Numbered from the stretch's first letter, positions 2,833 to 54,032 are shown. The stretch: DNA of 64,000 bases from Patescibacteria group bacterium (GCA_028716665.1 JAQUPP010000001.1:282860-346859); one strand, 5' to 3'. Numbers and translations are program-made. Notes: a model not told the origin generated them from the letters alone.

Positions 2833-3795
2833 ATGACAATTGCTTCTATCAATAATCAAAAAGAATGGGACGATTTTGTTCTCTTAAACGGAGAACAATT
2901 TTTACAATCTTGGCAATGGGGAGAATTCCAAAAAAATCTCGGCCGAAAAATTTGGCGTATGGCTGTTTACGAAGGCAATGAAATTATCGCCGCCGCTTTA
3001 ATCATAAAATATCAATTGCCATTTAATAAAAATTATTTTTATTCTCCGCGCGGGCCAATACTGAAAGAATCTGGAATATGGAATTTAGAATATGGAATAT
3101 TATTGGAAAAAATAAAAGAATTGGCTAAGCAAGAAAATGCGATTTTTTGGCGAATTGAGTCTCCAAATTCCAAATTCTATATTCCAAATTCTAAGCGGAT
3201 TTCTGATGTCCAACCGTCAAAAACAGTGATTCTGGATTTAAAAAAGACAAGTGATGAAATTTTTACCAAAATGCATTCTAAAACCAGATATAATATTCGT
3301 TTAGCCGAAAAACAAGGCGTAAAAATATATGAAAAAACAGGAGAAGGAGCGGAAGTTTTTTTAAAACTTCTTAAAGAAACTTCTCTGCGCGATCAATTCA
3401 GGGCGCACCCGGATAATTATTATTCTCATCTTTTGAATTTTAATCCGCAATTTGTCAGATTGTACGTGGCCGAATATGAAAATAAAATTTTGGCAGCCAA
3501 TTTGATGATTTTCTCTTCAAAAACGGTGACTTATCTTCACGGCGCTTCTTCAAATCTTCATCGCAATGTGATGGCACCTTATCTTTTGCATTGGTTTATT
3601 ATTCAGGAAGCTGTTAAAAACGGTTATTTTTATTATGATTTTTGGGGAATAGACGAAAAAAAATGGCCGGGTGTAACTCGTTTTAAAAAAGGATTTAACG
3701 GTGAAGAAGTTATTTATCCGGGAACTTTTGATTTACCATTTTCTAATTTTTGGTACACTATATATAGGGTCGGAAGGGTAGTAAAAAAGATATAA
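2833..3795 (+). CDS. FemAB-family peptidoglycan interpeptide-bridge aminoacyltransferase
   Basis: Length and motifs resemble FemA/FemX ('KTRYNIRLAEKQGV', 'LYVAEYENKILAANLMIFSSKTVTYLHGASS', 'RFKKGFNG'). Contains two in-frame heptamer-repeat patches: 3072-3098 'SGIWNLEYGILL' and 3163-3195 'SPNSKFYIPNSK'. Confidence 0.75.
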   Translation: MTIASINNQKEWDDFVLLNGEQFLQSWQWGEFQKNLGRKIWRMAVYEGNEIIAAALIIKYQLPFNKNYFYSPRGPILKESGIWNLEYGILLEKIKELAKQENAIFWRIESPNSKFYIPNSKRISDVQPSKTVILDLKKTSDEIFTKMHSKTRYNIRLAEKQGVKIYEKTGEGAEVFLKLLKETSLRDQFRAHPDNYYSHLLNFNPQFVRLYVAEYENKILAANLMIFSSKTVTYLHGASSNLHRNVMAPYLLHWFIIQEAVKNGYFYYDFWGIDEKKWPGVTRFKKGFNGEEVIYPGTFDLPFSNFWYTIYRVGRVVKKI

Positions 3796-3901
3796 ATTAA
3801 ACAGTTTTTGGTTATTAGTTCTTAGTTTTAGTTTATTAGTTTCCAGTTTCAAAATGAATAACCAAATAACCATAACCGTCAACTAAAAACTACAAACTAT
3901 T

Positions 3902-4807
3902 ATGGTCTCCTTGCTTCTGTCAATAATTATCGGTTTTTTTCCATCAAATAATTTGAGTAATTTTAATTTTTTAAAAGACGCAGTTAAAACACCGGTTAAT
4001 ATTTCCGAGTTTCCTTATTCATTCGGTCCAAAATTAACGGCCAAGAGTGCCATTGTTATAGATGTTGATTCGGGTAAAGTTCTATTTGAAAAAAATTCTG
4101 AAGAAAAATTGCCCATTGCCAGTATTACCAAATTGATGACTGCCTTGGTTTTTTTGGAAAATAAAACAAAAACTTGGAATGATACGATAGAAGTAAAAAA
4201 AGAAGATTCGGTGGGAAGTGGAGGATTGTCAAATCAACTCGAACCGGCAAGTTTGGCGGTCAAAGAAGGAGATATTTTAACAGTTAAAGATATTTTTTAC
4301 GGAGGACTGATAAAATCAGCCAATAATGCCATGAAAATTTTAGCTCGCGTAGTATCAAATGACAGCGGAAAAAATTTTATTGACTTAATGAATAATAAAG
4401 CGCAAGATTTATCAATGCTTAACACGCACTTTGAAGAACCGACCGGACTTGATCCGAAAAATTATTCTACGGCTCGAGATTTGGCAAAATTAATTGTTGA
4501 AGCAATGGAGAGGTCGGAAATCAGAGAAGCGCTTGAAAAAAAAGATTATGATGTTCAAATAATAAAATCGGATAAATCTTTGACTCATCTTCATATTCAA
4601 AACACTGACAAATTGCTGGGAAGTTTTATCAATATTAAAGGAGCTAAAACCGGTTATATTAATGAAAGTGATTATTGTTTAGCCGCTTTAAGCCAAATAG
4701 ACAATCATAATTTGGCAGTAATAATTTTGGGGGCAAAAACAAGTGAAAATAGATTTCAAGAAGCAAAAAGTTTAATTTTTTGGGCTAATCAACAATTGAA
4801 CAAATAA
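3902..4807 (+). CDS. D-alanyl-D-alanine carboxypeptidase (peptidase S11, PBP5/6-like)
   Basis: Active-site 'SITKLMT' (SxxK), 'SAN' in 'IKSANNAM', 'KTG' in 'GAKTGYI'; N-terminal signal/TM. Confidence 0.8.
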   Translation: MVSLLLSIIIGFFPSNNLSNFNFLKDAVKTPVNISEFPYSFGPKLTAKSAIVIDVDSGKVLFEKNSEEKLPIASITKLMTALVFLENKTKTWNDTIEVKKEDSVGSGGLSNQLEPASLAVKEGDILTVKDIFYGGLIKSANNAMKILARVVSNDSGKNFIDLMNNKAQDLSMLNTHFEEPTGLDPKNYSTARDLAKLIVEAMERSEIREALEKKDYDVQIIKSDKSLTHLHIQNTDKLLGSFINIKGAKTGYINESDYCLAALSQIDNHNLAVIILGAKTSENRFQEAKSLIFWANQQLNK

Positions 4808-4827
4808 ACAAATAATTTTAAATATAT

Positions 4828-5643
4828 ATGAAACGTCCGATTGTCATCGCTAATTGGAAAATGCAACTGGGATTAAAGGAAGGAGAGTCCTTAATGGATG
4901 ACATTTTGAATCGTCTTGGAAAAATAAAAACAATTGCGGAAAAAGTTGATATTATTTTTTGTCCGCCATTTTTTGCCTTGGAATCTATTTCAAAAAAATT
5001 AAAAGGCAGCTTCTCTTTGCTTAACAGAAAAAATCAAATGACTAATTTATTTTTGGGAGCACAGGATTGTTTTTGGGAGCATAAAGGAGCTTTTACCGGA
5101 GAAATTTCTCCTGATCAATTAAAAGAATTAGGTTGTCAATATGTTATTATCGGCCATTCGGAGCGCAGACAGAATTTGGGAGAAACCGATGAAATGGTTC
5201 ATCACAAAATAAAAACAGTTTTGGAAAGCGAATTAACTCCGATTCTTTGTGTTGGCGAGACTTTTGAAGAACGTCAAAATGGAGCCAAAGATTACGTGAT
5301 TATCAATCAAGTTACCAGAGCTCTAGAGGGAAATGTTTTAAAAGCGGATCAGGAAATAATTGTCGCTTACGAACCGATTTGGGTTATTGGCAGCGGCCAA
5401 GTCGTGACCCAAGAAGAAGCCCAATACACAAATCAAGTTATTCAACAAAGAATGATTGATTTTTATCCTTTACCGTTAATAAAAAATAACATTCGTTTAC
5501 TTTACGGCGGCGGAATTGACTCAACAAATGTCGGTCAATTTATTGAGAAAGACATTATTGACGGAATTTTAGTCGGCAATACGAGTTTAAAAGCGGAAGA
5601 ATTCGTTAAAATGATTGAGGCTATCGGTCTTAAAACTAAATAA
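4828..5643 (+). CDS. tpiA: Triosephosphate isomerase
   Basis: 'IANWKMQ', 'IIGHSERR', 'VAYEPIWVIGSG', 'LYGGGI'. Confidence 0.9.
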   Translation: MKRPIVIANWKMQLGLKEGESLMDDILNRLGKIKTIAEKVDIIFCPPFFALESISKKLKGSFSLLNRKNQMTNLFLGAQDCFWEHKGAFTGEISPDQLKELGCQYVIIGHSERRQNLGETDEMVHHKIKTVLESELTPILCVGETFEERQNGAKDYVIINQVTRALEGNVLKADQEIIVAYEPIWVIGSGQVVTQEEAQYTNQVIQQRMIDFYPLPLIKNNIRLLYGGGIDSTNVGQFIEKDIIDGILVGNTSLKAEEFVKMIEAIGLKTK

Positions 5644-5658
5644 TAATTTAAATTTCAA

Positions 5659-5967
5659 ATGTTAATCAATATTATTCTCTTCATTATTTTTATATTTTCT
5701 CTCGGAGGCATTATTTTTATAATTAAACCGAAATTGCCCTTGATATCCAATCTTGATTTATCTCAAGTCCCCCAGGAAAAAATTGCTCAAGTTAAAAAAG
5801 ATCTTTTAGATAAAAAAATAGACAGGCAAATTATTGAAGTGGTGTATAGGCTTAGAATAAAAAGAGATAATTTGAAAATAAACACGAAAAATGTTTTTTG
5901 GAAACTGAAAAATTTATCATCAAAAATTGCCTTCAAGGCCCTTGCTTTTTTTAGAAAAAAGAAGTAG
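5659..5967 (+). CDS. Small hypothetical membrane protein
   Basis: N-terminal TM helix with a K/R-rich tail; sits at the position SecG often occupies after tpiA but has no SecG motif. Confidence 0.3.
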   Translation: MLINIILFIIFIFSLGGIIFIIKPKLPLISNLDLSQVPQEKIAQVKKDLLDKKIDRQIIEVVYRLRIKRDNLKINTKNVFWKLKNLSSKIAFKALAFFRKKK

Positions 5968-5992
5968 AATATTTAAAATAGTTATCCGATTT

Positions 5993-6064: not shown

Positions 6065-6069
6065 TTTTT

Positions 6070-6152
6070 GGGTGGGTAGCAAAGTAGTCAAATGCGGCAG
6101 ACTGTAAATCTGCTGGCTTCGGTCTTCGTAGGTGCAAATCCTACCCCACCCA
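6070..6152 (+). tRNA. tRNA-Tyr (anticodon GTA), long variable arm
   Basis: Acceptor gggtggg/cccaccc; anticodon arm gcaga-ctGTAaa-tctgc; class-II variable arm; T-arm gtagg-tgcaaat-cctac. Confidence 0.85.
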
Positions 6153-6156
6153 CTTT

Positions 6157-6227
6157 GCCGTCCTAGCTCAACTCCGACGTTTTAGAGTCGGAGTCCCGAC
6201 CTCCAATGGAGCGTCGGGATGGACAGG
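6157..6227 (+). pseudogene. tRNA-like remnant: the first 15 nt of tRNA-Thr(TGT), 'gccgtcctagctcaa', fused to a ~56-bp double-hairpin repeat element
   Basis: 18-nt direct repeat 'tttgccgtcctagctcaa' (6154-6171 and 6250-6267); hairpins ctccgac..gtcggag and tcccgac..gtcggga; the 3' 'ggacagg' is a degenerate acceptor strand. Confidence 0.6.
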
Positions 6228-32114: not shown

Positions 32115-32645
32115 ATGAAACGCAGCGCGCAAAGTTTAATTGAGACCATTGTTGCTATTGGCATGATCACGGTCGCCATAGTGGCTATTTTATCTGTAGG
32201 TTTAAGCAATTTAATGTTAAGCGGACAAACCTCGGAAAGAGTGATAGCGACAAATTTGGCTCGCGAAGGGGTTGAAATTATTAATGCCATCAGGAGTAGC
32301 CAAAGATTGGATCCGGATCAAACCTGGCCTTATGGTATGACAAATGGCAATTGGATAGTTGATTACGACGATTCCAGTTTAACCGCAGCCGATTCCGCTA
32401 CAATTGGTGCATGTGATAATTGCAGTCTTTATATAACCGGTAATGATGTTTATACTCGTGATTCCGGCAGTAATACATTAACGATTTATCGCAGATTAAT
32501 TAATATTTCTGATGGCGATATTTTAGGCGGAAATTGTCTTAACGTGGGAGATTGCGAAAAAATAATTACCTCCACGGTTTATTGGACAGAGAGAGGAAGA
32601 CCGCACAGTATTGAACTTAAAACTCATTTAACAGATTGGAGATAA
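32115..32645 (+). CDS. Minor pilin / pseudopilin-like protein (non-canonical 'KRSA|QSLIETIVAIG')
   Basis: Glu at +5 of a hydrophobic N-terminal helix; small size. Confidence 0.6.
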   Translation: MKRSAQSLIETIVAIGMITVAIVAILSVGLSNLMLSGQTSERVIATNLAREGVEIINAIRSSQRLDPDQTWPYGMTNGNWIVDYDDSSLTAADSATIGACDNCSLYITGNDVYTRDSGSNTLTIYRRLINISDGDILGGNCLNVGDCEKIITSTVYWTERGRPHSIELKTHLTDWR

Positions 32646-32703
32646 AGATGGAATCTAGAATATGGAATTTAGAATTTAGAATAAAAAACAAAAAATTTAA
32701 AAT

Positions 32704-33762
32704 ATGGAAGAAAGAACAATAATAAAATCATTTACTGATTTGATGGTGTGGCAGGAAAGCCATAAGCTTATTTTATTGATTTATAAAATTACCAAAAAAT
32801 TTCCAAAAGAAGAACTTTTTGGTTTAACAAATCAAATGCGTCGAGCCGGAGTTTCAATTACGTCTAATATCGCTGAAGGATTTTCCAGACAAAGTTTTAA
32901 AGAAAAATTACAGTTTTATTATATGGCTCTTGGCTCACTGACTGAAGTCCAAAATCAATTTTTAATAGCCAAAGATTTAAAATATTTAGATCAAATAGAG
33001 TTTAGAGAAGCTATTGGGCAAATAACAAGCGTTCATAAATTATTGAATGCTTTTATTAAAAAATCTAAATTGATTCTAAGTTCTAATCCAAATTCCAAAT
33101 TCCAAATTCCAAATTCTAGTAATAAGGGTTTCACCCTCATTGAGCTTTTGATTTCTTTAAGTATTTTAGTAGTAGTGATCTTATCAGCAGTTGGTATTTA
33201 TATTAATATTATCGGCACGCGCAGTAAAAGTTTGGGGCAATTGAATCTTCAGGAAGATGGGCAGTATATCATGAGCTTGATTGTGAAAGATATCCGCGCC
33301 AATAAAATAGATTATGATGAATATGGCGATAGTGATGAGAAAGATTGCGGAATTATAAACGTGAGCACCCTGAAAGTAGGAGACAATACTTCATCAAGAG
33401 TGGCAAAATTATGTTTACTTGATTTTAGTGCGACGCCGAATAAAATCAGATATAAAAGATGTCTTGATCCGAATAATGCAAACAGAGGTGTCCTAAAAAT
33501 ATGCAGAGGTGTTGACTGCACGACCAATGATTGTCCCTCCACGGGCGATACTTATCAAACAATAACTATGGCTAATTTGGGTGTTGAGCGCCTTGATTTT
33601 TATATCAATCCGTTTACTAATCCTTTTACGGCCGGTTCTATTACTTATATTCATCCTCGGGTTACTATAATTTTAAAATTAAAATCTTTAATTGAGAAAC
33701 CCGGTGAAAAACAAATAATTCTTGAGCAGACGGTTCCCCAGAGATACGAGCTCAAAAAATAG
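32704..33762 (+). CDS. In-frame fusion ORF: N-terminal four-helix-bundle protein (PF05635, '23S rRNA IVS'/Avd-like, ~120 aa), a heptamer-repeat-encoded linker 'SSNPNSKFQIPNSSNK', then a type IV pilin ('GFTLIELLISLSILVVV...')
   Basis: Family signature 'VSITSNIAEGFSR' in the N-terminal half; canonical prepilin cleavage/helix motif at aa ~142; the linker is a 4-unit 'ccaaatt' tandem (33088-33119). Confidence 0.7.
   Translation: MEERTIIKSFTDLMVWQESHKLILLIYKITKKFPKEELFGLTNQMRRAGVSITSNIAEGFSRQSFKEKLQFYYMALGSLTEVQNQFLIAKDLKYLDQIEFREAIGQITSVHKLLNAFIKKSKLILSSNPNSKFQIPNSSNKGFTLIELLISLSILVVVILSAVGIYINIIGTRSKSLGQLNLQEDGQYIMSLIVKDIRANKIDYDEYGDSDEKDCGIINVSTLKVGDNTSSRVAKLCLLDFSATPNKIRYKRCLDPNNANRGVLKICRGVDCTTNDCPSTGDTYQTITMANLGVERLDFYINPFTNPFTAGSITYIHPRVTIILKLKSLIEKPGEKQIILEQTVPQRYELKK
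33088..33119. repeat. AAATTCC/AAATTCT heptanucleotide tandem repeat (4 units); member of a dispersed family
   Basis: 'ccaaattccaaattccaaattccaaattctag'. Confidence 0.9.
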
Positions 33763-33821
33763 AATTTGGAATTTAGAATATAGAATTTAGAAAAAATAAA
33801 AATAAGAAAATAACATAAAAT

Positions 33822-34598
33822 ATGGAAAATAAAAATATACTAAAACTGGTTCCAAATTCCAATCCGCCAGCTGGCGGACCAAATTCTAGTAAAGATGGTC
33901 TTTCCATAATTTTAATTCTTTTGATTATTTCTTCTATTTTAACGGGCACGGTTATCGTTGGAGAAACTATTGTTAGACATACGCAGATAGTCAAAGGCGC
34001 TGAAGTTTCCGAAAAAGCCTTTTTTGCCGCTGAAACCGCGGTTGAAAAAGCGATTTATGGAGTGTTTAAAAATTACGCCAGTGTTACCACCGTTACCGAG
34101 GGCAGTATAATTTATGGCGCGACTTCCGCGACTTATTCAGCCAGTGTTAGCATCGACGTTGAAAATCCCGATACGGGTATTGATATAACAAATAGTGATC
34201 CTTGGATAATTTCTTTGGGAGAAGGAGAATCCTTTCAATTGAATTTGGATCTAAACAGCACGGCTTATCCTACGGCCTTGAGAATTGATCGGACGGGCGA
34301 TGGTTTTGGTGATTTGATTTTTTATCAATGTACCGCTTCCAGTAACGGATGTTCTTCTACGGAAAATCAAATTTTTTACTCGAATTTTACCGGACAGGAT
34401 ATTACTTTTAGTCCGTCTATTCCGACAAATTATTATCGAATTAGAATAAATAATTCAGGCGGAACCGGCACTTATACTTTAAAACCAAATTCCGCTACCC
34501 TGCCGATTGGTGTAAATATCACGGCGGAAGGATTCTATGGCGGTTACGAACGTCAGATAAATGACAATTATCCGAAGTGGCAGAAATTCGGGATATAA
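33822..34598 (+). CDS. Pilin-like protein with a duplicated leader 'MENKNILKLVPNSNPPAGGPNSSKDG'
   Basis: The first 23 codons are nearly identical at DNA level to the 31500 gene, including the CCGCCAGCTGGCGG palindrome; a hydrophobic helix follows. Confidence 0.6.
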   Translation: MENKNILKLVPNSNPPAGGPNSSKDGLSIILILLIISSILTGTVIVGETIVRHTQIVKGAEVSEKAFFAAETAVEKAIYGVFKNYASVTTVTEGSIIYGATSATYSASVSIDVENPDTGIDITNSDPWIISLGEGESFQLNLDLNSTAYPTALRIDRTGDGFGDLIFYQCTASSNGCSSTENQIFYSNFTGQDITFSPSIPTNYYRIRINNSGGTGTYTLKPNSATLPIGVNITAEGFYGGYERQINDNYPKWQKFGI

Positions 34599-34705: not shown

Positions 34706-37700
34706 ATGAAAATTTCCAATAAAGCGATAACTAATAAATTTTTAGTAAAAAGTTTTTTTATCGCTATTTTAATTATCAGTGCCAGCGCAATGGTTGTTTT
34801 TGCCTGGACAGAACCGACTTTAAGTCCGCCGGACGGAAATACTTCGCCGCCGATTAATGAGGGTTTAACCAGCCAGGGCAAGCTGGGTAATTTAGGTGTT
34901 GGAACAACAAGTCCGATAGAAAAACTTGAAATATATTCCGGAAATATTAATATTCGCCGTCCGGATAATAGCGCTACTATGGGCCTTCTTTTTTCTCAAG
35001 GAGTTAATGATTTATGGAGAACTTATATAACCAATGATAGCGCATCTGACTTAAGATTCCGGGCAGGCGCTACCGACCATATGACAATTCAATATTCTAC
35101 TGGCAATGTCGGCATCGGAACAACAGTTCCAGGATATCCATTGACAGTCAATGGCATTGTCCAAATTGGAACTAATTTATATCTTAATGGCGGAACGACA
35201 AAATATCTTTATGCCTCAGGGAGTGAATTAAGGATTGGAAGCCTCGGCGGCGGTGGTTTTATTTCATTTTACGGCAATGACGGTTCAAATCGCGAAATGA
35301 TGAGAATGACAGGCGCGAATTTGGGTATCGGGACAACAATTCCGGCATACAAGTTAGATGTGGTAGATAATACAAATGATATTAATGTTGGAGTTCGCGC
35401 AACGGCTGCTTCTAAAGCCGTTTATCTTAGATTAGAAGGTACTCACACTACCTATGGTGGTGTTATATATAAGACATCGGGGGCTGATACTTGGAAATTG
35501 GGAAATTTCGGAGATACTGCCGATTCCTTTAATATTTATACAGCAGGTTCAAATAGAATGACAGTATTATCCGGTGGCAACATCGGCATCGGGACAACAA
35601 TCCCGACTACGGTCTTAGATATTAATGGTGCTTTAACCGCTCGAGGTATGGCTGCTCCTTCAACTTCACCTGCGGGTCAAGGCAGAATATATTTTGATTC
35701 AACGGCCAATGTATTTAAGGTTTCAGAACATGGTGGCGTTTATACTAATCTTGTGGGTGGAAATTATTGGACCCGCGATAGTGGAAATGGATATCTTTAT
35801 TCTACGACTCTTACTGACAAAGTCGGTATCGGGACAACGGTTCCGGGGTATAAATTACAGATCAACAATACAGCAAAATCCGGGGCTGATAATGCGTTAG
35901 TCGCGATTAGCAGTTCTGATGCGACAAATCCTTTTCAATTTATTATTGGTAGGTCTGCGGCAGGAGCAGATTCTTATTACTCACTCCAATCAGTCGAGCA
36001 GAATACTGGTTATCGGGATATCGTGTTGCAACCAAATGGCGGCAATGTCGGAATTGGAACAACGGATCCGGGAGCGTATAAATTAAATGTAAATGGACAA
36101 ATTTTAGCCACTAGCTATATTCGCAGTGATAGTTATGTCCAAAGTCGTTCAACCACTCCTTATCTTGATTTATATCAAGATGGACAACAAGAGTGGAAAA
36201 TTGGACAACTTACAGCTGGCAGTAAAACTTTAACATTACAAGCTACTGGAGCAGCATCTCCAGATGTAATGACTTTATTGTCAACGGGTAATGTCGGTAT
36301 TGGGACAACAGTACCGGTTTCACCGTTGCATATTTATAAAGCAGTTGGCGGTGGAGGTATTACTACTTTTCTTACATTAGATCCGCATAGCGGAACCAAT
36401 GAAGATGGTTCAGCTATTGATTTTATTACTTCAACAGATACGGCAACTGTGGGAACTAAAATTGCAGGGGTGCGCGATGCGGCAGGTGCGTATGCTTCTT
36501 TAAGATTTACAACAAGAGGTTCAGATGGATTATTAGAACGAGTCAGAATAGCAAATAACGGCAAAGTCGGCATCGGGACGACAATACCGGGATATAAACT
36601 TGATGTTTGGGATTCCGGAGATGCGGCTATAACCAGAATTAATAATAATAACACAACCCATTACTATACCGGTTTGCGATTAGACAGAGAAGCTTCAGAG
36701 AAATGGTTTGTGGGTATGAATGCCACTGCCAGTAATGATAATTTAGTATTCAGGCGAGCAGGCACTACTGATGATATGGTAATCAGCACGAGCGGTTATG
36801 TCGGCATTGGAACAACCGCGCCAATATCGCAATTATCCGTAGCCATACCATACGCAAAAACCGATACCACAGAGCGCGATGCAATTAACATGGTGACCAA
36901 TGATACAAATCCCTTTAAACTGAATTTTTCAATTACAGGAGCGGCCACCATAGCCAATCGAGCGGCAATTTTACAAACCAGCGATAGTGGCTTGGCTTAT
37001 GGCGGAAATTTAATTCTTCAACCGAATACGGGCAATGTCGGTATTGGGACAACTGGACCAAGTGCTAATAAATTAGTTGTTGATGGCGGCGGACTTACTT
37101 TTCAAGGCGGCGGTTCTCATTATATTACCGGTTTAACGCCATTGGGAGCTGGCGATCCTGATACTTATGCCGCGAATAAAGGTTATGTTGATGCTATCGC
37201 AACGGGCAGTGTTGGTCTTTGGCAAGGTAGTATGACTGGCAATATTTATAAGGCTAATTCCGGCAATGTCGGCATCGGAACGACAGTGCCAGTAGAATTA
37301 TTGCATCTTAAAAAAGACCAAGCAGCTTATACAAATATAAAAATTGAAAATGCCAATTCTGCTGGAGCTGCGCAGGTATTTATGATTAATGATTTAGGTA
37401 GTGCCTACACTCAAGGACTATATGGTTCTACTCATGACGCCTATGGTGCCGTTTCTGCAAATGGTGGATTTACATATTTTAATGGGGCTGGTGGATTAAC
37501 CCTAATGGCAGATAATGCTGCGGGAATTATTAAATTTGCTACAGGAGGTAATAGTGAAAAGGTTCGAATTAATAGTACTGGTTATGTCGGCATCGGAACA
37601 ACAAACCCCTTAGAAAAACTTGAAGTATATTCTGGGAATATTCGTACTCACCGACCGGATAATAGCACCACCATGGGCTATCTTTACGCTCAAGCAGGCA

Positions 37701-38752
37701 CTGATTTATGGAGAACCTATACAACAAATGATAGCGCATCTGATTTAAGATTCCGAGCAGGCGCTACCGACCACATGGCAATTAAATATTCTACCGGCTA
37801 TGTCGGTATTGGAACGACAGGCCCGACACATAATTTACAAGTAAATGGGTATAATACTACTGGTACAAGCGTTGTTAATACAAAGGGGAACTATGATTTT
37901 TATGCTCCGGCTGGTCAATATCCTAGAGATTTGGGATTTGGGGTGATAGCCGGACCTGTTACGGGTAATGTTAATTTATATGGCCTTACTGACTGGAAAA
38001 GTGGTTATGGCGGTTATATAGGTGCTTGGTCAGATGTTACTGCTGCAACCGAGGGGAATACTAATGCGGCAGGTGTTGTTTCTATTTTACGAGGAAGTCC
38101 AACTAACAGTAATGCCTTTGGTTTTTATTCTGATTTGTCTAATTTTTCTGGGGCAGGAGGTAATACAAAATATGGTATTTATAGTACTGGAGAAACTTAT
38201 GATTATTTTGCCGGCAATGTTGGTATTGGGACAACGGTACCTTCTAATCTTTTAAGTGTTTGGGGGCAATTGGCTGTTGGTGAAATAGACATGCTAGATG
38301 CTCCTGATGGTGATAGAAATATTACAAATGTTAATAAACTTACCGTTGCAACCATTGATCCGGTCTATGAAATTAATGGTAAAAAGTATGCGACTTATGC
38401 CGCTTCAATTGCTGGCGGAGTGAAAGAAGAATACACCGGCAAAGCAAAACTTTTTGAAACAAAAACTTCAGAATACGAATACATAATTGATTTTAATAAA
38501 ATAGAGATTGGCTCTGACTTATGGGTTTGGAGGAATGCAGTGGATTTCTCGCGCGATAACGTGGATATATTGATTACCCCTTATGGAGAATCAGCTGATA
38601 TATATTATTTGATTGAAGGCGATAAAATAATTATTCGCGGCGACAAAATGGTTGAATTTTCTTACCGTTTAACCGGCAAAAGATTTGATTGGCAAAATTG
38701 GCCAACCTTATCTAAAGACCAAAATGAAAAAGCTTCATTTATTATCAAATAG
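34706..38752 (+). CDS. Giant secreted surface protein (1348 aa) with more than 15 copies of a Gly-rich 'xGNVGIGTT(I/V)PxxKLxVxG' repeat; phage-tail-fibre/beta-helix-like
   Basis: Signal peptide; the periodic repeats are readable in the translation; internal ~230-bp duplication (34901-35128 versus 37601-37828). Confidence 0.7.
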   Translation: MKISNKAITNKFLVKSFFIAILIISASAMVVFAWTEPTLSPPDGNTSPPINEGLTSQGKLGNLGVGTTSPIEKLEIYSGNINIRRPDNSATMGLLFSQGVNDLWRTYITNDSASDLRFRAGATDHMTIQYSTGNVGIGTTVPGYPLTVNGIVQIGTNLYLNGGTTKYLYASGSELRIGSLGGGGFISFYGNDGSNREMMRMTGANLGIGTTIPAYKLDVVDNTNDINVGVRATAASKAVYLRLEGTHTTYGGVIYKTSGADTWKLGNFGDTADSFNIYTAGSNRMTVLSGGNIGIGTTIPTTVLDINGALTARGMAAPSTSPAGQGRIYFDSTANVFKVSEHGGVYTNLVGGNYWTRDSGNGYLYSTTLTDKVGIGTTVPGYKLQINNTAKSGADNALVAISSSDATNPFQFIIGRSAAGADSYYSLQSVEQNTGYRDIVLQPNGGNVGIGTTDPGAYKLNVNGQILATSYIRSDSYVQSRSTTPYLDLYQDGQQEWKIGQLTAGSKTLTLQATGAASPDVMTLLSTGNVGIGTTVPVSPLHIYKAVGGGGITTFLTLDPHSGTNEDGSAIDFITSTDTATVGTKIAGVRDAAGAYASLRFTTRGSDGLLERVRIANNGKVGIGTTIPGYKLDVWDSGDAAITRINNNNTTHYYTGLRLDREASEKWFVGMNATASNDNLVFRRAGTTDDMVISTSGYVGIGTTAPISQLSVAIPYAKTDTTERDAINMVTNDTNPFKLNFSITGAATIANRAAILQTSDSGLAYGGNLILQPNTGNVGIGTTGPSANKLVVDGGGLTFQGGGSHYITGLTPLGAGDPDTYAANKGYVDAIATGSVGLWQGSMTGNIYKANSGNVGIGTTVPVELLHLKKDQAAYTNIKIENANSAGAAQVFMINDLGSAYTQGLYGSTHDAYGAVSANGGFTYFNGAGGLTLMADNAAGIIKFATGGNSEKVRINSTGYVGIGTTNPLEKLEVYSGNIRTHRPDNSTTMGYLYAQAGTDLWRTYTTNDSASDLRFRAGATDHMAIKYSTGYVGIGTTGPTHNLQVNGYNTTGTSVVNTKGNYDFYAPAGQYPRDLGFGVIAGPVTGNVNLYGLTDWKSGYGGYIGAWSDVTAATEGNTNAAGVVSILRGSPTNSNAFGFYSDLSNFSGAGGNTKYGIYSTGETYDYFAGNVGIGTTVPSNLLSVWGQLAVGEIDMLDAPDGDRNITNVNKLTVATIDPVYEINGKKYATYAASIAGGVKEEYTGKAKLFETKTSEYEYIIDFNKIEIGSDLWVWRNAVDFSRDNVDILITPYGESADIYYLIEGDKIIIRGDKMVEFSYRLTGKRFDWQNWPTLSKDQNEKASFIIK

Positions 38753-41194: not shown

Positions 41195-41227
41195 AATTTT
41201 CTGATAATTTAAAATTGAAAAATCAAA

Positions 41228-41599
41228 ATGGAAAATGACAATGTAAATTTTAAAAATGAATTCAAAAAACGCCTTTATAACTGGGTTTTAAGATTAATCA
41301 AGTTTATAGACAAGCTTCCCAAAGACTCCGTATGTAATGTCTTGGGAAAACAGCTTCTAAGAAGTGGAACAAGCATTTTGGCAAATTATATTGAGGCAAA
41401 CTCAGCCAGCTCAAAGAAAGATTTTATTAATTTTTTCACTCATTCTTTAAAATCAGCCAATGAATCTAAGGTTTGGCTGACATTATTAAGAGATACTGAC
41501 AAAGGAGATAAAAATGAATTGCAGTGGTCATTAAAAGAACTGATAGAAATAGCCAATATTCTGGCTTCCAGCATTTTAACTCTCAAGGGTAAGAAATAA
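41228..41599 (+). CDS. Four-helix-bundle protein (PF05635 / TIGR02436, '23S rRNA IVS' / Avd-like)
   Basis: 'LRSGTSILANYIEANSASSKKDFINFF' family signature; 123 aa. Confidence 0.7.
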   Translation: MENDNVNFKNEFKKRLYNWVLRLIKFIDKLPKDSVCNVLGKQLLRSGTSILANYIEANSASSKKDFINFFTHSLKSANESKVWLTLLRDTDKGDKNELQWSLKELIEIANILASSILTLKGKK

Positions 41600-41673
41600 T
41601 TTTGACATTTTGAATTGTAATTTTAATTTTTGATATTTACATTTTGCATTTTTTAATTATCCACTTTATATTA

Positions 41674-41702: not shown

Positions 41703-41751
41703 ATAAGAGTAAAGTTAGTATTTTTAAGTATAAAATTGATTGTTTAAATAT

Positions 41752-44700
41752 ATGAAAAAACAAATATTTTCTTCAAAAATTATTTATTTTTCGATTTTTT
41801 TAATTTTAATTTGTTTTTCTTATTGGGGAGTAGAAAAAGTAAGGGCAGCTGATCCGCTGGACAATGATCAGATTGATATGCTGAAATATTTAGACATGAA
41901 TGAGCACGGGATTTTTAATTTAGCTACTCCGGTAGATGATGATAACGCCGCGACACAAGGATATGTTAAATCAGTAGTTTTAACAAATACTGGTTGGACG
42001 GCTACTGACAGCTATATTTATTTAACTACTATTGGTAATAGCGTCGGTATTGGAACAACAATTCCGGTCGCAAAATTGGAAGTTGCCAATAATTATAGCA
42101 GCACGGCAACGCTACCTTCGGCTAATATTGGTATAGTTGGGCGTAATTATACAGGTTCCGGCGCTGATGTTATTGGTGTCTATGGACAAGGAAAAACCAA
42201 TGACGCTTCTTATAACAGTTATGGCGGTTATTTTTATGGCACTTATAGCAGTAATAGAAATAAAGCGATTGGTATTTATGCTTATGGAAATGATTATGCG
42301 GCTATTTTGGATGGTACTGTCGGAATCGGATCATCAATACCGGCTACAAAATTAGATGTTAATGGCAATATTGCGGCGAATACCTATTATTCTCGTGGTG
42401 ATCCAATCGGTTATTTTCTTAATCCTGCCGCAGGTGGTACGGGTTGGGGATTATATTCCAATGGTTCTGTATATGCTTCTGGAAGTGATGATAATTATTT
42501 TGCCGGAAGCGTCGGAATTGGAATAACAAATCCGGGAGCAAAACTTTCAATCGTAACACCGGATACCAATTATTCAACAATATGGTCTAATAACGGTGGT
42601 GCAAATAATGAATATCTTTCTTTATATCAAACTGTTGATGATTTTATATTTACTTCCAATAAAAATGGTTCAGGAGTTCGTAAGGGTATAGGAATTACTG
42701 CCACAGGTGCGGATAATACCATGCCTAGTGGAATATATTTAAAAACAGACGGTTATGTCGGAATAGGAACAACAATTCCGGGTTTTAATCTTGATGTTTA
42801 TGGTTCAGGGGTTGTGGCATCGCAAATTGTAAGCACTAATAATTATTCAGCTCAATATATTAAAGGTGGTCAGAGCGGAGATGTACGCTGGGGATTATTT
42901 AGCGGATATCCGAATGTGGGAGATTTTACAATCAGAGAGACAGGAGTTGCTGATTATTTGACAGTCAAAAAAACTACCGGCAATGTCGGTATTGGGACGA
43001 CGATTCCAGGCATGGTATTAACAGTTAATACGAGTACTAATGATCAAGGTATTCAAATTCAAGGAGCAGCATCAAATATTAGTCCTGTACTTAAATTCGC
43101 AACTTCGGCAGGTACTGCTTATGCTCGTATTGGTATTGCGGGTGCAGCTGGTAATTTAGCTACAAACAGTGGTCAAAATGATTTAGTTATTAGAACAGAA
43201 GGTACTCAAAAACTTCATCTTGCTCCAGGAGCCGTTATTACTGAAACTTTGCTTTCTACTGGTTATGTCGGCATTGGAACAACAATCCCATCAACAAATC
43301 TTGATGTTAATGGCCAAATAAAAATCAGAGGAGGGGTACCTGGCGCTGGTAAAATTTTAATTTCGGATGCAGTTGGTTTAGCTACTTGGTCTCCTGCCAC
43401 TTCTATCAGCGATGGCGACTGGACAATTTCCGGCAATAATCAATATTCTGCTGTTTCCGGCAACGTCGGTATTGGGACAACGGATCCGACGGCAATTTTA
43501 CAAATTAATAAATCCACTGGCGGTAGTGGACAAAAATGGTTGATTCTTTCTACGACTGGAGCTTCCAGTGAAGGAATGGTTTTTAGAACTGACAATGGTG
43601 ATATTAATCGTATCACGTCTTATGGTGATTTGTATTTAGAATCCAATAATGGTTCAGGTGCTACTTTAGGACTTGATAGTGGTGGTCATTCTAGTTTTGG
43701 AGGTTATGTTTATGCACCCAGTTTGACTGTAGGTGGACTGGACATTACCCCACCGACAGAGGGAGCTATTATTTCCGGCAATGTCGGTATCGGGGTGACG
43801 GATCCAGTTAGTAAATTAGCAATTTTATCCGGAGCGGGTGTTGGCGGAATTTCAATCGGCACTGATGAAACTTATGCTGCTGTAGCTGCTCCCGACGGCG
43901 GAGCAATAATTGAAGGCAATGTCGGTATCGGTTATACAACTGCTTCTATAGATAAATTAAGAGTTAATGGTTCTATTATGTCTACGGGTCCTGCTGGTGG
44001 GAGTCCGTTGCTTACATCGGCTATTAGAATGTCAGTGGAAGGATCCGGAGCTTATGGACAAGTTCAAACTTATAATTCTGTGCCCTTAGTGTTAAACCCC
44101 ACAACTGCGGGCGGTAATGTCGGTATTGGCGTGACAAATCCGGGTAATAAATTAAGTGTTTATGGAGGCACAATAGGTGCTTATAATTTTGACGGAACCG
44201 ATGGTCTATTAATTGAAGGATATAGCGCTTCAGCTAGCGATGATGCAATGATGCAATTTCATACTTCGGGAGCGCTTTATAAAATGGGAATAGATTATTC
44301 TGATGAAGGAAAATTTAAGCTTACTTATGGTAGTGAAGATAATGGACAGACACAAATTGTAATGACTGGCTCCGGTAAGGTTGGAATTGGATTAGCAAAT
44401 CATACTCCGTTATCCAAACTGGACGTGTCGGGTAATATGGCTATTGGTTCTTATGCCGGGGCTAGCGCCGCACCTTCAAATAGTTTAATAGTTAGTGGCA
44501 ATATTGGTATTGGAACAACAGCACCGGGAATAGATTTAGCTATTGGCGATACTGATACCGGTTTAGATTGGGCGAGTGATGGTAATTTAAAAGTAATGAC
44601 TAATAATTCAGAAAGAATAAGAATCGCTTCAGATGGTAAGGTTGGAATTGGAACAACCGGGCCGGTAAATCCACTTCATATTTATTCGTCATCATCTTCT

Positions 44701-45963
44701 GTAATTCCATTGAGAGTTGACGATTATTATTATACTTATTCAATAGGAGCTGGAACTTTTTCATCGCCCAATACAAATGGATGGCAATTATACAAAGCAA
44801 GCTCGGAAACTTATTATGACAGCGTAGTGGGTGGGCATCATTTTTTGACCTCAGGATCTGAAAAAGTTACATTTACGAGTGATGGTAAGCTTGGAATCGG
44901 AACAGCTACGCCAGCAACATATTTAGACATCAAAGGAACACAAGTTGCCGGAAGCTACGGAGATGCCGCAACAGCGATAAAGATTAATATGACAAATGAT
45001 GCTTCATCAATCTATGGTGGAATTGCATGGAAGGACAGCGAAACAGCGGCCGAGACTTGCGGGATTTATCCTATGCGTTCGGGCGGAGTGAATTATTTCG
45101 ATTTTTTAAATACAGGTACAGTTTATATGAGGTTATTAGGCGGAACAGGAACAATCTTGAATGACAACAGCGCTGACTTGGATTTTCGCGTAGAAAGCAA
45201 TGATAACGCAAATATGTTTTTTGTTGATGGTGGGGCAAATACAGTAACAGTAGGATATAACGGATCACTTGGTTCTAAATTTAATGTTTATTCGGCGACA
45301 AATAACACAACACAATTTACCGGTCATCTATTGAATGTCAGAGCAGGAGATGGAACCACTAATACAATTAGTGAAATTGATTTCGGAGTAGCCAATACAG
45401 TAGCACCAGTTATTATCGGAAGTAAAGTTATAGACGGTTCCGGTGCTACAAAGGGAGATTTTTATATCGGGACAAGAGATTCGACAGATGGAGCAACGCT
45501 TCCAACAGAAAGATTAAGAGTAACAACCGCTGGCAAAGTCGGTATCGGGATAACAAATCCGGGACAAGCATTGGATGTTACTGGAACTATTCGCCAATCA
45601 GCTTGTAAAACAGCCGGTACTCTTTCCGCAAATACTTCAGGTGATATTATTTGTACATCTGATGAGCGATTGAAAAATATTTATGGATATTATCAAGGCG
45701 GACTTGCCGCGCTTTCCGCAATTAATCCGATAAAATTTTCTTATAAAGGAGAAGATTTCGTTCATGTGGGATTCTCGGCGCAGAATGTAAAAAGTGTTTT
45801 ACCTGAAGCCAGCGCCTTGCAGGATAGCGGTTATTGGAGCTTGGACGATACATCAATTACGGCATTAACTGTAAATGCCATCAAAGAACAACAAAAAGAA
45901 ATCGAAGATTTGAAAAATGTTGTCTGTCAATTAAAACCCGATGCAGATGTCTGCAATAAGTAA
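41752..45963 (+). CDS. Giant tail-fibre-like surface protein (about 1400 aa) with a C-terminal peptidase-S74 intramolecular-chaperone (autoproteolytic) domain
   Basis: Signal peptide; N-terminal 'IFNLATPVDDDNAATQGYVKS' tail-fibre-like motif; many GNVGIGTT repeats; C-terminal 'CTSDERLKNIYGY...HVGFSAQNVKSVLPEAS...ITALTVNAIKEQQKEIEDLKN' matches the endosialidase-chaperone domain. Confidence 0.75.
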   Translation: MKKQIFSSKIIYFSIFLILICFSYWGVEKVRAADPLDNDQIDMLKYLDMNEHGIFNLATPVDDDNAATQGYVKSVVLTNTGWTATDSYIYLTTIGNSVGIGTTIPVAKLEVANNYSSTATLPSANIGIVGRNYTGSGADVIGVYGQGKTNDASYNSYGGYFYGTYSSNRNKAIGIYAYGNDYAAILDGTVGIGSSIPATKLDVNGNIAANTYYSRGDPIGYFLNPAAGGTGWGLYSNGSVYASGSDDNYFAGSVGIGITNPGAKLSIVTPDTNYSTIWSNNGGANNEYLSLYQTVDDFIFTSNKNGSGVRKGIGITATGADNTMPSGIYLKTDGYVGIGTTIPGFNLDVYGSGVVASQIVSTNNYSAQYIKGGQSGDVRWGLFSGYPNVGDFTIRETGVADYLTVKKTTGNVGIGTTIPGMVLTVNTSTNDQGIQIQGAASNISPVLKFATSAGTAYARIGIAGAAGNLATNSGQNDLVIRTEGTQKLHLAPGAVITETLLSTGYVGIGTTIPSTNLDVNGQIKIRGGVPGAGKILISDAVGLATWSPATSISDGDWTISGNNQYSAVSGNVGIGTTDPTAILQINKSTGGSGQKWLILSTTGASSEGMVFRTDNGDINRITSYGDLYLESNNGSGATLGLDSGGHSSFGGYVYAPSLTVGGLDITPPTEGAIISGNVGIGVTDPVSKLAILSGAGVGGISIGTDETYAAVAAPDGGAIIEGNVGIGYTTASIDKLRVNGSIMSTGPAGGSPLLTSAIRMSVEGSGAYGQVQTYNSVPLVLNPTTAGGNVGIGVTNPGNKLSVYGGTIGAYNFDGTDGLLIEGYSASASDDAMMQFHTSGALYKMGIDYSDEGKFKLTYGSEDNGQTQIVMTGSGKVGIGLANHTPLSKLDVSGNMAIGSYAGASAAPSNSLIVSGNIGIGTTAPGIDLAIGDTDTGLDWASDGNLKVMTNNSERIRIASDGKVGIGTTGPVNPLHIYSSSSSVIPLRVDDYYYTYSIGAGTFSSPNTNGWQLYKASSETYYDSVVGGHHFLTSGSEKVTFTSDGKLGIGTATPATYLDIKGTQVAGSYGDAATAIKINMTNDASSIYGGIAWKDSETAAETCGIYPMRSGGVNYFDFLNTGTVYMRLLGGTGTILNDNSADLDFRVESNDNANMFFVDGGANTVTVGYNGSLGSKFNVYSATNNTTQFTGHLLNVRAGDGTTNTISEIDFGVANTVAPVIIGSKVIDGSGATKGDFYIGTRDSTDGATLPTERLRVTTAGKVGIGITNPGQALDVTGTIRQSACKTAGTLSANTSGDIICTSDERLKNIYGYYQGGLAALSAINPIKFSYKGEDFVHVGFSAQNVKSVLPEASALQDSGYWSLDDTSITALTVNAIKEQQKEIEDLKNVVCQLKPDADVCNK

Positions 45964-46054
45964 TCTATTGATTATTAAAGAATTAACGAGTTATGAAAAT
46001 AAAGAACATAAGCTAATTTCTAATTTTCAATTTCTAATTTCTATTGAATTTTAA

Positions 46055-46433
46055 ATGAATCAATTTTCAAACCCGAAAAACAAGGAATATAATTTAGAAG
46101 AAAGAACAGCCAAATTCAGCGAAGACATAATAGAATTCATAAGAAGCATTAAGAGAGACGATATTAATCGTAATATTATTACTCAATTAGCGCGTGCCAT
46201 AACTTCAATCGGCGCTAATTATTGCGAAGCTAATGCTTCCAGCTCAAAAAAGGATTTTCGCAATAAAATATATATTTGCAAAAAAAGAGGCCAATGAAGC
46301 AAAATATTGGTTAAGGATATTGGCTAAATATCATCCTGAATTGAAAGAAAAAATAAGAATTTTTTGGCAAGAAGCCCATGAATTTCATCTGATTTTTCAG
46401 AAAATTACCAACACCCTGGATAAAAAAGTTTAA
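46055..46433 (+). pseudogene. Four-helix-bundle (PF05635) gene disrupted by a frameshift in an A7 run near 46270 (two overlapping ORFs, 46055-46297 and 46233-46433)
   Basis: 'ITSIGANYCEANASSSKKDFRNK' continues in the +1 frame as 'IYIAKKEANEAKYWLRIL...'; paralogue of the 41228 gene. Confidence 0.6.
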
Positions 46434-46537
46434 AAATTAAAGAATTGAAAATTTAATAAAAATTAAAAATTAGAAATTGAAAATTAATTAAGTATTTATA
46501 ATCCGTTAATTTATAAATTAATAATCTAATTAAAGTT

Positions 46538-52436: not shown

Positions 52437-52566
52437 TGATTACTTATTATGTTGCGGGCAGGATGAAAACCTGCCCGTTTTTTTATTCATATAAAAATGT
52501 AAATATTTTATGTAGAAATTAGTAAATAATAAAACGTAGTATTCATCAGTATTCTAGGTGAGGGGC

Positions 52567-52595
52567 TTGACAAAAATCAAAAAATATGCTAATAT
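52567..52595 (+). promoter_or_regulatory. Conserved-family promoter with extended -10 (TTGACA-N17-TGcTAATAT)
   Basis: 'aggggcttgacaaaaatcaaaaaatatgctaatattta'. Confidence 0.55.
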
Positions 52596-52599
52596 TTAT

Positions 52600-52880: not shown

Positions 52881-52897
52881 GAAGGAGGAGGACAAAG

Positions 52898-53002
52898 ATG
52901 CCAGGAATGAATTATCTGATAGTAATTTTAATAATTTTTATATTAGTAATTCATTTTACATTAGAGAATAGAAAAAATAGGAGAAAAAGGAGGATAAAAT
53001 GA
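52898..53002 (+). CDS. Small hydrophobic peptide (34 aa) whose stop overlaps the next start (ATGA)
   Basis: Strong SD 'gaaggaggagg' 6 nt upstream; 'MPGMNYLIVILIIFILVIHFTLENRKNRRKRRIK'. Confidence 0.4.
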   Translation: MPGMNYLIVILIIFILVIHFTLENRKNRRKRRIK

Positions 53003-53373
53003 AAAAACTTTTGATAGTAATGGGTATATTAGTGATATGTCTTTTTGCAGGGTGTACACAAACTCCAACACAGGTGACAACCACGCCAGAGTCAAAAATA
53101 GTGGAATTTCCCGATCTTGACATAACCGTTACTTTTTATTATGCCAAACCAGGAGAATTGCCAAAGATTAAAATAGATAATCATAATGAAAATGGCGCAG
53201 ATGTCCTGATTGAGAAGGAGACAAATGAATATGAGGAGTGGCTAAATGTCTTTCATGAAAACATAGGAGGAAATTCCTCGGTTATTAAAAACAAAGAATT
53301 CATACCAGGGAAAAAACACAAAATAACCATTAAATGCGAAGAAGTTACTCGAACAGGATATGTAACTCCGTAA
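52999..53373 (+). CDS. Lipoprotein of unknown function
   Basis: Signal peptide with lipobox 'LFAGC'. Confidence 0.5.
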   Translation: MKKLLIVMGILVICLFAGCTQTPTQVTTTPESKIVEFPDLDITVTFYYAKPGELPKIKIDNHNENGADVLIEKETNEYEEWLNVFHENIGGNSSVIKNKEFIPGKKHKITIKCEEVTRTGYVTP

Positions 53374-53438
53374 TAATAAAGAGCTCGAGATTTTAATCAA
53401 GTAAGATTAAAATTGAGAGCTCTTTTTTCTTACAAAAA

Positions 53439-54032
53439 CTAATTGTATAAACTCATGGTTTTTTCTATTCCTTGTTCCAGAGCCGCAGAGATTGCTTCAA
53501 CAGTTGATTCTTCTGTTTGTTTGAGAAGTTTTTTTTCGCCGACAGAGAAATTTTTTAAAACTAAATCCATAGCTTTCTCCGACGCTTTGGTCGGAGTCCC
53601 GACCCCTTGGCGTCGGGATTGATTTTGAGCGGAGTGATTAATGCCGATTCTGAATCTGACGAAATTTTTCGTTTTTAAATTATCAATAATTGACTGAACG
53701 CCATTATGACCGGCAGACGAGCGATTTATGGAAATCCGAATTTTTCCCAATGGCAAATCCATATCATCATGAATAACCCACAGATTGGAATTTGGAATTT
53801 GGAATTTAGAATTTAGAATTTTAACCGCCAGTCCGGATTCGTTCATAAATGTGGTTGGAATAACCAAACAAACTTCGCCTTTTTTTGAGATTTCAGCTTT
53901 AAAATTTTTGTTCAATTTGAAAGTTGGAAAATCAAAAGTTTTGGCAAAATCCATTACTATTTTTTGCCCGATATTATGGCGGGTATTTTTATATTGTTCG
54001 CCCGGATTTCCCAGACCGATAATAAAAATCAT
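53439..54032 (-). CDS. pth: Peptidyl-tRNA hydrolase carrying an in-frame ~14-aa repeat-element insertion
   Basis: 'IIGLGNPGEQYKNTRHNIG', 'PTTFMNESG', 'HDDMDLPLGKIR', 'GHNGVQSI', 'RFRIGI'; insertion 'SAQNQSRRQGVGTPTKAS' encoded by the double-hairpin element (53577-53620); heptamer tandem (5 units) at 53786-53823. Confidence 0.85.
   Translation of the reverse strand: MIFIIGLGNPGEQYKNTRHNIGQKIVMDFAKTFDFPTFKLNKNFKAEISKKGEVCLVIPTTFMNESGLAVKILNSKFQIPNSNLWVIHDDMDLPLGKIRISINRSSAGHNGVQSIIDNLKTKNFVRFRIGINHSAQNQSRRQGVGTPTKASEKAMDLVLKNFSVGEKKLLKQTEESTVEAISAALEQGIEKTMSLYN

Follow-up and report, generated by a model that had tools for sequence, protein, structure and literature searches.

Heptanucleotide arrays in a Patescibacteria genome as probable arm repeats of foldback elements that carry a four-helix-bundle gene

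A 64,000-nt stretch of a Patescibacteria group bacterium genome (GCA_028716665.1 JAQUPP010000001.1:282860-346859; "the window" below, with coordinates counted from its first base) contains tandem arrays of the heptanucleotide AAATTCY or its complement GGAATTT/AGAATTT, dispersed between and inside unrelated genes. Probably (at roughly 0.6), these arrays are repeats that form the arms of foldback elements. The elements would make up a family constructed from heptanucleotide arrays, the complete form of which carries a gene for a four-helix-bundle (4HB) protein of the PF05635/TIGR02436 family. Most of the arrays form inverted pairs, an organisation overlooked in a preliminary description of the window. 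Comparison with close relatives (83-90% protein identity) reveals gain and loss of arrays, exchange of complementary pairs for those of another heptamer family, and invasion by a palindrome. Furthermore, the architecture of a 4HB gene between inverted heptamer arrays recurs across phyla. Loci of relatives and of other genomes are designated below by L-numbers and relatives' proteins by P-numbers.

Every tandem AAATTCY array reported in the preliminary description was recovered. Counting both strands, we found the pattern AAATTCYAAATTCY 13 times, whereas shuffles of the window that preserve dinucleotide content predict 0.07 occurrences. In our own scan, arrays of at least three units numbered 16 at period 7 against 0.6 expected, and were near background at the neighbouring periods (3 against 0.75 at period 6, 1 against 0.2 at period 8), so that the seven-base periodicity itself is special. 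The heptamer is thus enriched above the AT-rich background in the window, and at period 7 only. Tandem Repeats Finder placed its period-7 calls at 3067-3100, 3162-3193, 28154-28209, 32651-32682, 33087-33116, 33760-33792 and 53785-53821. An Rfam search of the window returned only four tRNAs, and no family matched any array.

The AAATTCY family comprises ten arrays at seven places in the window. Eight form four inverted pairs, which on the plus strand have a GGAATTT/AGAATTT/GGAATAT array upstream and an AAATTCY array downstream: within femAB (3072-3098/3163-3195), at the first pilin gene (31486-31502/31527-31565), around a 4HB open reading frame (ORF) fused to a pilin (32647-32681/33088-33119) and at the fourth pilin gene (33761-33790/33847-33888). 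Two of the four span pilin start and leader codons; the only solo arrays lie in GT2 and pth. Pfam identified the host genes as FemAB, GT2, Pth, prepilin peptidase, N_methyl pilins and a fusion of 23S_rRNA_IVP (PF05635) to a pilin, in agreement with the gene names proposed earlier. The identical peptides encoded in unrelated enzymes, previously held to be remarkable, are indeed present, but they are an automatic outcome of the DNA repeat: because 7 and 3 share no common factor, (AAATTCC)n translates to a cyclic KFQIPNS in whichever frame it is read.

The complete cassette lies in a pilin gene. Its upstream G-rich arm (plus strand, as are all features below unless stated) holds what used to be the start codon of the pilin and is now that of a 5-codon mini-ORF (32662-32679). 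An intact 4HB ORF (32704-33087; Pfam 1.3e-37, TIGR02436 1.4e-37) follows; it has no stop codon of its own and is joined in frame to the pilin through the C-rich arm downstream, (AAATTCC)3 AAATTCT, which encodes a linker, NPNSKFQIPNSS. The pilin moiety (33120-33762) carries the N_methyl cleavage motif G|FTLIEL, with the G at 33127-33129. In the minimum-energy predicted fold of 32640-33125 (486 nt; z -3.35) the two arms pair with each other. In the orthologues P0242, P0243 and P0248 the pilin lacks a 4HB domain and has a leader reading MKEKNILKFIPNSN.KG|FTLIEL, and the empty site reads AGAAT-ATG-(24 nt)-ATTCCAAATTCCAAT at the DNA level; at this position of the window the 24 nt are replaced by the expanded arms and the 4HB ORF. 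Judged from this alignment, the cassette evidently entered the pilin gene exactly between heptamer units already present in the leader. Many other Patescibacteria proteins are 4HB-pilin or 4HB-X fusions, often with heptamer-coded linkers such as NSKFKIQNS or SPNSKFQIPNS; the partners include DHFR, LamG-type, GyrI-like, glycosyltransferase-9 (GT9) and membrane proteins (P0320, P0322, P0325, P0327, P0296 and P0309).

The two other pilin-associated pairs are ORF-less. At pilin 1, the upstream arm AGAATTT AGAATAT overlaps the start codon, and the downstream arm, within the leader, encodes PNSNPPAGGPNS and has a 16-nt palindrome, TCCGCCAGCTGGCGGA, nested in it at 31541-31556. Ahead of pilin 4 the arm is AGAATTT GGAATTT AGAATAT AGAATTT, the equivalent of which in L192 is a single unit (TAGAAT); the leader arm again contains the palindrome (33863-33878), around which the outer arms pair in the predicted fold (z -3.57). 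In L191 the positions of the window's GGAATTT/AAATTCC arrays ahead of pilins 1 and 4 are occupied by an 85-nt foldback whose arms are AATTTTC/GAAAATT; its two copies are 87% identical. The adjacent prepilin peptidase (30716-31489; Pfam A24_N_bact, Peptidase_A24) would be expected to remove the array-bearing leaders, that is, everything before G|F, and pilin leaders would therefore be a safe haven for such sequences.

Three PF05635 ORFs are present in the window (1.3e-37, 3e-18 and 1.7e-08), each between inverted heptamer arrays and each cassette with a heptamer of its own. The second cassette (41202-41652) has an open 4HB ORF (41228-41599; 3e-18) and degenerate arms, of TGAAAAT type upstream (41202-41260) and ATTTTNA type downstream (41597-41652). 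The third (46013-46486) consists of a CTAATTT arm (46013-46056), a frameshifted 4HB pseudogene (46055-46433) and an AAATTAG-type arm (46443-46486), the arms being 83% complementary over 36 nt; an intact orthologue of the pseudogene occupies the syntenic site in L189. The GGAATTT family thus brackets the one cassette that combines regular arrays with the best family-model 4HB match, and its ORF-less derivatives are three short inverted pairs and two solo arrays. No 4HB protein matched a PADLOC defence model. A further heptamer family (TAGTTTT ... AACTAAA) forms an ORF-less intergenic hairpin of period-7 arrays at 3802-3899, the predicted fold of which is no stabler than those of shuffled sequences (z -0.35); its TAGTTTT array (3802-3849) differs from that of L183 (~3713; ~88% nucleotide identity) by 21 nt, exactly the length of three heptamers. 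It should be added that two giant proteins with recurring G-IGTT motifs (34706-38752 and 41740-45963; 1348 and 1407 residues) are encoded nearby; the second ends in a Peptidase_S74 (endosialidase chaperone) domain, and both genes are followed by cupredoxin-like genes, and one of the two by a 4HB cassette.

The wider distribution was assessed in 57 4HB loci from GTDB species genomes, which were picked solely by similarity to the three window 4HB proteins and span Patescibacteria, Bacteroidota, Clostridia, Acidobacteriota, Verrucomicrobiota and others. They hold 175 period-7 arrays, against 8, 9, 17, 0 and 2 for periods 5, 6, 8, 9 and 10, and 118 of the 175 are located no more than 300 nt from the 4HB ORF, where 16% of the bases lie. 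Among the 55 loci with both flanks, a period-7 array was found within 150 nt upstream in 36, downstream in 34 and on both sides in 29; the corresponding counts were 11, 16 and 0 of 272 shifted control positions and 3, 4 and 0 of 45 non-4HB ORFs from those loci. At 44 of 56 loci the inverted repeat formed by the flanks scored higher than 99% of the controls taken from that locus. The heptamer varies by locus (GTAGTAA/TTACTAC, TTGACAA/TTGTCAA, GGAATTA/TAATTCC) and the polarity is fixed, with more G than C in the upstream arm at 39 of 44 loci. Median arm length is 34 nt; ~16 nt separate the upstream arm from the start codon, and ~14 nt lie between the stop and the downstream arm.

Genes annotated in RefSeq as 'four helix bundle protein' have heptamer arms in Nostoc punctiforme, Trichormus variabilis, Riemerella and Picosynechococcus. 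The plasmid 4HB genes of N. punctiforme PCC 73102 and T. variabilis ATCC 29413 have (CAGGAGT/CAGAATT)n on one side and (ACTCCTG/AATTCTG)n on the other, and those of Riemerella are bracketed by GGTTTAA and TTGAACC arrays. On a plasmid of Picosynechococcus sp. PCC 7003 (L199; NZ_CP016476.1 126543-126899) a cassette with GGAGATA-type arms sits between cas10 and cmr3. This insertion lies in a type III-B CRISPR operon; a CRISPR survey lists '23S rRNA IVP' among CRISPR-associated genes (PMC10910872). In a metagenome-assembled genome of Holophagae (L033 1420-3189), a 4HB gene has on either side a 26-nt heptamer-built unit, AAGGTTTAAAGGTTAAAGGTTTAAAG, repeated at intervals of ~156 nt, in a layout resembling a CRISPR-like interspaced array.

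The turnover of the arrays can be followed in femAB. The 5' arm (GGAATAT GGAATTT AGAATAT GGAATAT) encodes SGIWNLEYG and the 3' arm (AAATTCC AAATTCT ATATTCC AAATTCT) encodes SPNSKFYIPNSK; they enclose 64 nt and form a predicted stem of ~28 bp (-38.1 kcal/mol, z -4.5). The enclosed 64 nt are native coding sequence, conserved in all orthologues, and the orthologues (86-90% identical) differ essentially at the two patches only. At the DNA level L186 has no arrays, L183 has the same arms with the palindrome inside the 5' arm, and in L187 both arms are swapped for mutually complementary TTCTAAT and GAAAATT arrays, TTCTAATTTTCAATTTCTAATTTCTAAT and ATTGAAAATTTAAAATTGAAAATTGAAAATT. Origin of the arms as the footprint of an excised cassette was rejected, since they surround native, conserved coding sequence. 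Upstream of femAB, a 1.2-kb segment (1616-2856) separates it from recR and contains an ORF (1745-2581) with seven DUF4116 repeats, which appear as 75/177-nt tandem repeats; the segment is absent from L183 and L186, where recR abuts femAB.

The solo array of pth (53785-53823, minus strand) has five AAATTCY units and encodes NSKFQIPNSN. It is absent from the orthologues P0123 and P0124, present in P0125, and present together with the palindrome in P0122 (L188); between the array-bearing versions (the window or L190) and the array-less L189 the length difference is +24 nt. The patch aligns without gaps to solved Pth structures (LNSKFQIPNSNL against LLTYYNIDITDL). The GT2 array (28151-28212), partly degenerate, encodes NSKFQILNSKI and makes the protein ~13 residues longer at the patch than the solved homologue 5mlz; it is kept in L192 (3392-3450) with unit substitutions and equal protein length. 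The first femAB patch, compared with solved structures, costs two residues. Taken together, alignment of the host proteins, which had been proposed as a way to tell insertions from replacements, indicates that the arrays mostly overwrite variable segments (pth, femAB) and do not simply insert, GT2 being the case with added residues. All in-gene length differences among relatives preserve the frame (+12 nt in femAB and pth, and the +24 nt noted for pth in the comparison with L189).

The core CCGCCAGCTGGCGG occurs at 31542 and 33864, with 0 expected, and extends by one base on each side to the perfect palindrome introduced above. Both copies belong to a 78-nt leader segment duplicated at 92% identity and hence represent one event within the window; the independent events come from relatives. 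The junction AAATTCCA^TCCGCCAGCTGGCGGA^CC is identical in the window pilin leaders, in L183 femAB (on the other strand) and in L188 pth. In each, the palindrome replaces the central AATT of one AAATTCC unit, with a net gain of 12 nt, and is always read as PPAGG; it is absent from the same femAB and pth sites in the window, L190 and L186. Palindrome gain is a recurrent, site-specific event in the arrays. The association of arrays with this palindrome, suggested in the preliminary description, therefore stands on an identical junction in three independent arrays, though not on the half-site it had seen after the pth array: 'aaccgccag' consists of native codons for the conserved G-L-A-V motif, is present in the array-less L189 too, and was rejected as a palindrome derivative. 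In relatives, the same palindrome is also located inside two pseudo-tRNA-Lys copies (L184 79-157 and ~510-600; L183 ~390-470; L187 ~5680-5760 and ~6110-6190) that flank a GIY-YIG ORF and a genuine tRNA-Lys(UUU), the anticodon-stem segment GCAGCTGCC being replaced by TCCGCCAGCTGGCGGAC. This pair looks like either a duplicated integration site or a further target of the palindrome.

In metagenomes, (AAATTCY)4 was found in more than 120 contigs with G+C contents of 25-70%. Of 142 arrays at these loci, 57 are contained in long ORFs, and in 47 of these cases it is the coding strand that reads AAATTCY, so in-frame 'KFQIPNS' patches are common. AT-rich (AAATTCY)n arrays, some in inverted pairs, are present even in contigs of 66-70% G+C (L121, L126, L142, L162 and L170), which suggests horizontal spread or an active array-writing process rather than a compositional artefact.

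On the foldback-element reading, a complete element would comprise a G-rich array (median ~34 nt), ~16 nt, a 4HB ORF of ~120 codons, ~14 nt and a reverse-complement C-rich array. The arms may pair in the transcript and be processed by RNase III, by analogy with the heptamer-bearing Coxiella 23S intervening sequence (IVS) described below. Spread might proceed via recombination or template switching between arrays, and the 4HB protein may act on its own arms. The elements would persist in tolerant places, namely intergenic DNA, cleavable pilin leaders and variable enzyme segments, where selection presumably keeps the arrays stop-free and in frame. We read them as mainly selfish or neutral and not as a dedicated host switch. 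Of the explanations offered in the preliminary description, the footprint of a small mobile element is thus the better supported, by the 4HB cassette arms and by the turnover in relatives; the phase switch finds no support in the available data.

Several observations weigh against this account. The femAB arms bracket native coding sequence, which simple insertion cannot yield. No transposase, recombinase or reverse transcriptase was detected with Pfam/NCBIfam among 23 window ORFs scanned, and the conclusions rest on the 64 kb examined of a ~640-kb source contig. The arm mismatches comprise 57 sense-strand and 53 antisense wobbles; this excludes a G.U bias as a mark of selected sense-strand pairing and leaves no nucleotide-level sign of selected RNA pairing, and several AT-rich arm pairs fold no better than shuffled sequences. 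A 4HB gene is present in only 4 of 120 metagenome loci with (AAATTCY)4, directly abutting the array in 3 of the 4. Solo arrays hence far outnumber cassettes, the notion that most metagenome arrays adjoin a 4HB gene had to be dropped, and arrays may arise independently of that gene. Finally, 4HB proteins that are 58-68% identical carry GGAATTT, GTATTTT, ATGATTT or GAATCAT, which rules out a strict correspondence between 4HB sequence and heptamer and argues against a simple, fixed protein-heptamer code.

Other explanations were weighed against the same data. The potential phase-variation switches of the preliminary description would be contingency loci, that is, slipped-strand hot spots at which an ORF frameshift or altered spacing in the pilin promoter or 5' untranslated region serves as the switch. 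In its favour, three arrays are found no more than ~60 nt from the start codon of a pilin gene, phase variation classically affects surface structures, the number of heptamers differs between relatives by the 21 nt noted at 3802-3849, Coxiella IVS strains have 2 or 3 heptamers (PMC4990558) and 7-bp repeats control hmw1A in Haemophilus influenzae (PMC8262952). However, three to four assemblies of the same population from different samples (L001-L005) are, at assembly level, 100% identical at every array, with the differences of L002 (3 substitutions and one 1-nt indel) all outside arrays; comparison of unit counts across these assemblies thus gave no variation. A 7-nt slip within pth (essential), femAB or GT2 would mean plain loss of function, the in-gene differences among relatives keep the frame, and inverted pairing, flanked 4HB genes and the exchange of both arms are left unexplained. 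We regard contingency loci as distinctly unlikely, slippage at the intergenic arrays upstream of pilin genes being possible. Inversion of the DNA between paired arrays, switching pilin 5' ends, the 4HB gene or the femAB segment, might be expected from inverted repeats that surround two pilin start codons and one intragenic segment, and inversion switches, intragenic ones included, are known from other bacteria. Yet three of the pairs have spacers of just 24-64 nt, no invertase was detected among the 23 window ORFs scanned, and the orientation is the same in every assembly and relative compared; the orientation of the ORF relative to arm strand asymmetry, fixed in 39 of 44 loci, led us to reject invertons, which we hold to be very improbable.

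Alternatively, the arrays could constitute a cis-regulatory regulon, binding as RNA or DNA one factor that co-regulates pili, cell-wall and glycosylation genes, or serving as RNase III signals. The likeliest such factor, and an obvious candidate for a putative array-binding protein, is the 4HB protein whose gene these repeats enclose and whose relatives are pentameric. Consistent with this, the heptamer around the best-match 4HB ORF recurs at seven other places in the 64 kb, that of the pseudogene arms has no clear dispersed copies in the window, and L189, where the orthologous 4HB gene is intact, has its AATTTCT family dispersed. Moreover, Avd-family proteins generally bind nucleic acids, as seen in work on diversity-generating retroelements (DGR), upstream arms are purine-rich and often Shine-Dalgarno-like (e.g. 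CAGGAGT), and the median arm of 34 nt equals ~5 units. That arm length is the only hint of a match to a pentamer: in the 142 metagenome arrays unit number falls monotonically from the search minimum, and a five-unit preference was rejected accordingly. In addition, arrays are present or absent at the same genes in close relatives, unlike a conserved regulon, and related 4HB proteins differ in heptamer, so that we consider a regulon unlikely. As to chance low-complexity sequence, the window has a G+C content of 33-40% and many A/T-rich repeats; the shuffle and period tests reported above refute it, the same arrays occur in contigs of 55-70% G+C, and palindrome junctions are identical at independent sites, which reduces its probability to practically nothing.

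A broader version of the foldback-element reading would make PF05635/TIGR02436 4HB proteins the trans-acting partners of prokaryotic heptamer arrays, each recognising, stabilising or propagating its own heptamer as RNA or DNA, with the bracketed gene seeding ORF-less arrays genome-wide in a REPIN/RAYT-like or retroelement-like manner and overwriting loops of essential proteins. We put this forward tentatively and as rather doubtful; if true, it would account for the period-7 excess in bacterial genomes as well as for the orphan 'S23p/IVS protein' family. The small proteins of the 4HB/23S IVS family are very common, and we know of no role for them outside DGRs. In any case, two facts long kept apart, the heptamer excess and this orphan family, are now tied by a link that is strong, cross-phylum and testable, and the heptamer repeats of bacteria gain a candidate protein partner. 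The evolution of the arrays is striking in itself, with complementary arms written over two enzyme segments and exchanged for another family in a close relative, and with pilins that have gained an entire cassette as an in-frame fusion, the leader presumably being cleaved. As the tractable hosts Nostoc punctiforme, Trichormus variabilis and Riemerella share this architecture, they allow direct study of binding, RNase III processing and mobility.

Among known systems, the contingency loci exemplified by hmw1A (PMC8262952) are similar in having short repeats near genes for surface structures and a unit that is not a multiple of 3; the arrays described here differ in showing no within-population length variation in the assemblies, and in their occurrence in essential genes, their inverted pairs and their association with a specific ORF. 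The Avd protein of DGRs belongs to a homologous 4HB fold family (PF22296 bAvd 1.3e-06), but the 32704-33087 ORF reaches only 31 bits against NF033474, with an equivalog cut-off of 80, and neither a reverse transcriptase nor a template/variable repeat pair was seen among the subset of window ORFs scanned. REPIN-RAYT systems (PMC3116915) likewise have a single-copy gene between inverted copies of a short repeat that is also dispersed as pairs and singlets. The 4HB protein is, in contrast, small and helical, with no nuclease or transposase fold, and its repeats are heptamer arrays rather than imperfect palindromes of 20-30 nt. A Y1_Tnp (IS200/RAYT-like) gene flanked by three copies of a GGAGGTC(C/G)GACCTCC palindrome (GGAGGTCGGACCTCC) is present in L189 (2519-3430), and tblastn with its product found nothing in the window.

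Dispersed heptanucleotide tandem repeats are familiar from cyanobacteria as short tandemly repeated repetitive sequences. In the small dispersed repeats (SDR) of Nostoc, treated by Elhai et al. in 2008, hairpin sequences are reportedly nested in heptamer arrays; the palindrome described here would resemble them as a tiny hairpin nested in heptamer arrays, present or absent at orthologous sites and frame-preserving, and differs in sequence (16 nt, perfectly palindromic), in phylum and in its defined junction. Heptamer repeats have further been reported as TAACTGA in Beggiatoaceae, cyanobacteria and Bacteroidetes (PMC4679880) and as elements of four GGACCGG units in Geobacter metallireducens (PMC2700814), and a study using SPADE, which saw 'no clear clue' to their function, ranked them first among periodic repeats between prokaryotic genes (10.1101/309039). 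Common to these and the present arrays are one or a few dominant heptamers per genome, 2-6 units, and positions between or inside genes, often just before starts. Unlike our description of AAATTCY in Patescibacteria, those reports make no link to PF05635 genes or inverted pairs, the TAACTGA paper mentioning neither S23p nor four-helix-bundle proteins; our searches of the open-access full-text literature turned up the PF05635-heptamer link for the Coxiella IVS but in no more general form, although earlier notice elsewhere is possible.

The closest parallel is provided by the ORF-bearing 23S IVS of Leptospira, Coxiella, Brucella and Xanthomonas, in which the same ORF family (S23p = PF05635) lies inside a stem formed by inverted flanks. 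In Coxiella, tandem GACAGAT heptamers (three, varying between 2 and 3 among strains) precede the S23p ORF, and the 5' cut by RNase III falls at the first repeat (PMC4990558). The cassettes described here differ in lying between, ahead of or inside protein genes and not in helix 25 or 45 of a 23S rRNA gene, with no rRNA in the window, as well as in their long heptamer-array arms on both sides and in their dispersed ORF-less and solo derivatives, some of which are translated in frame.

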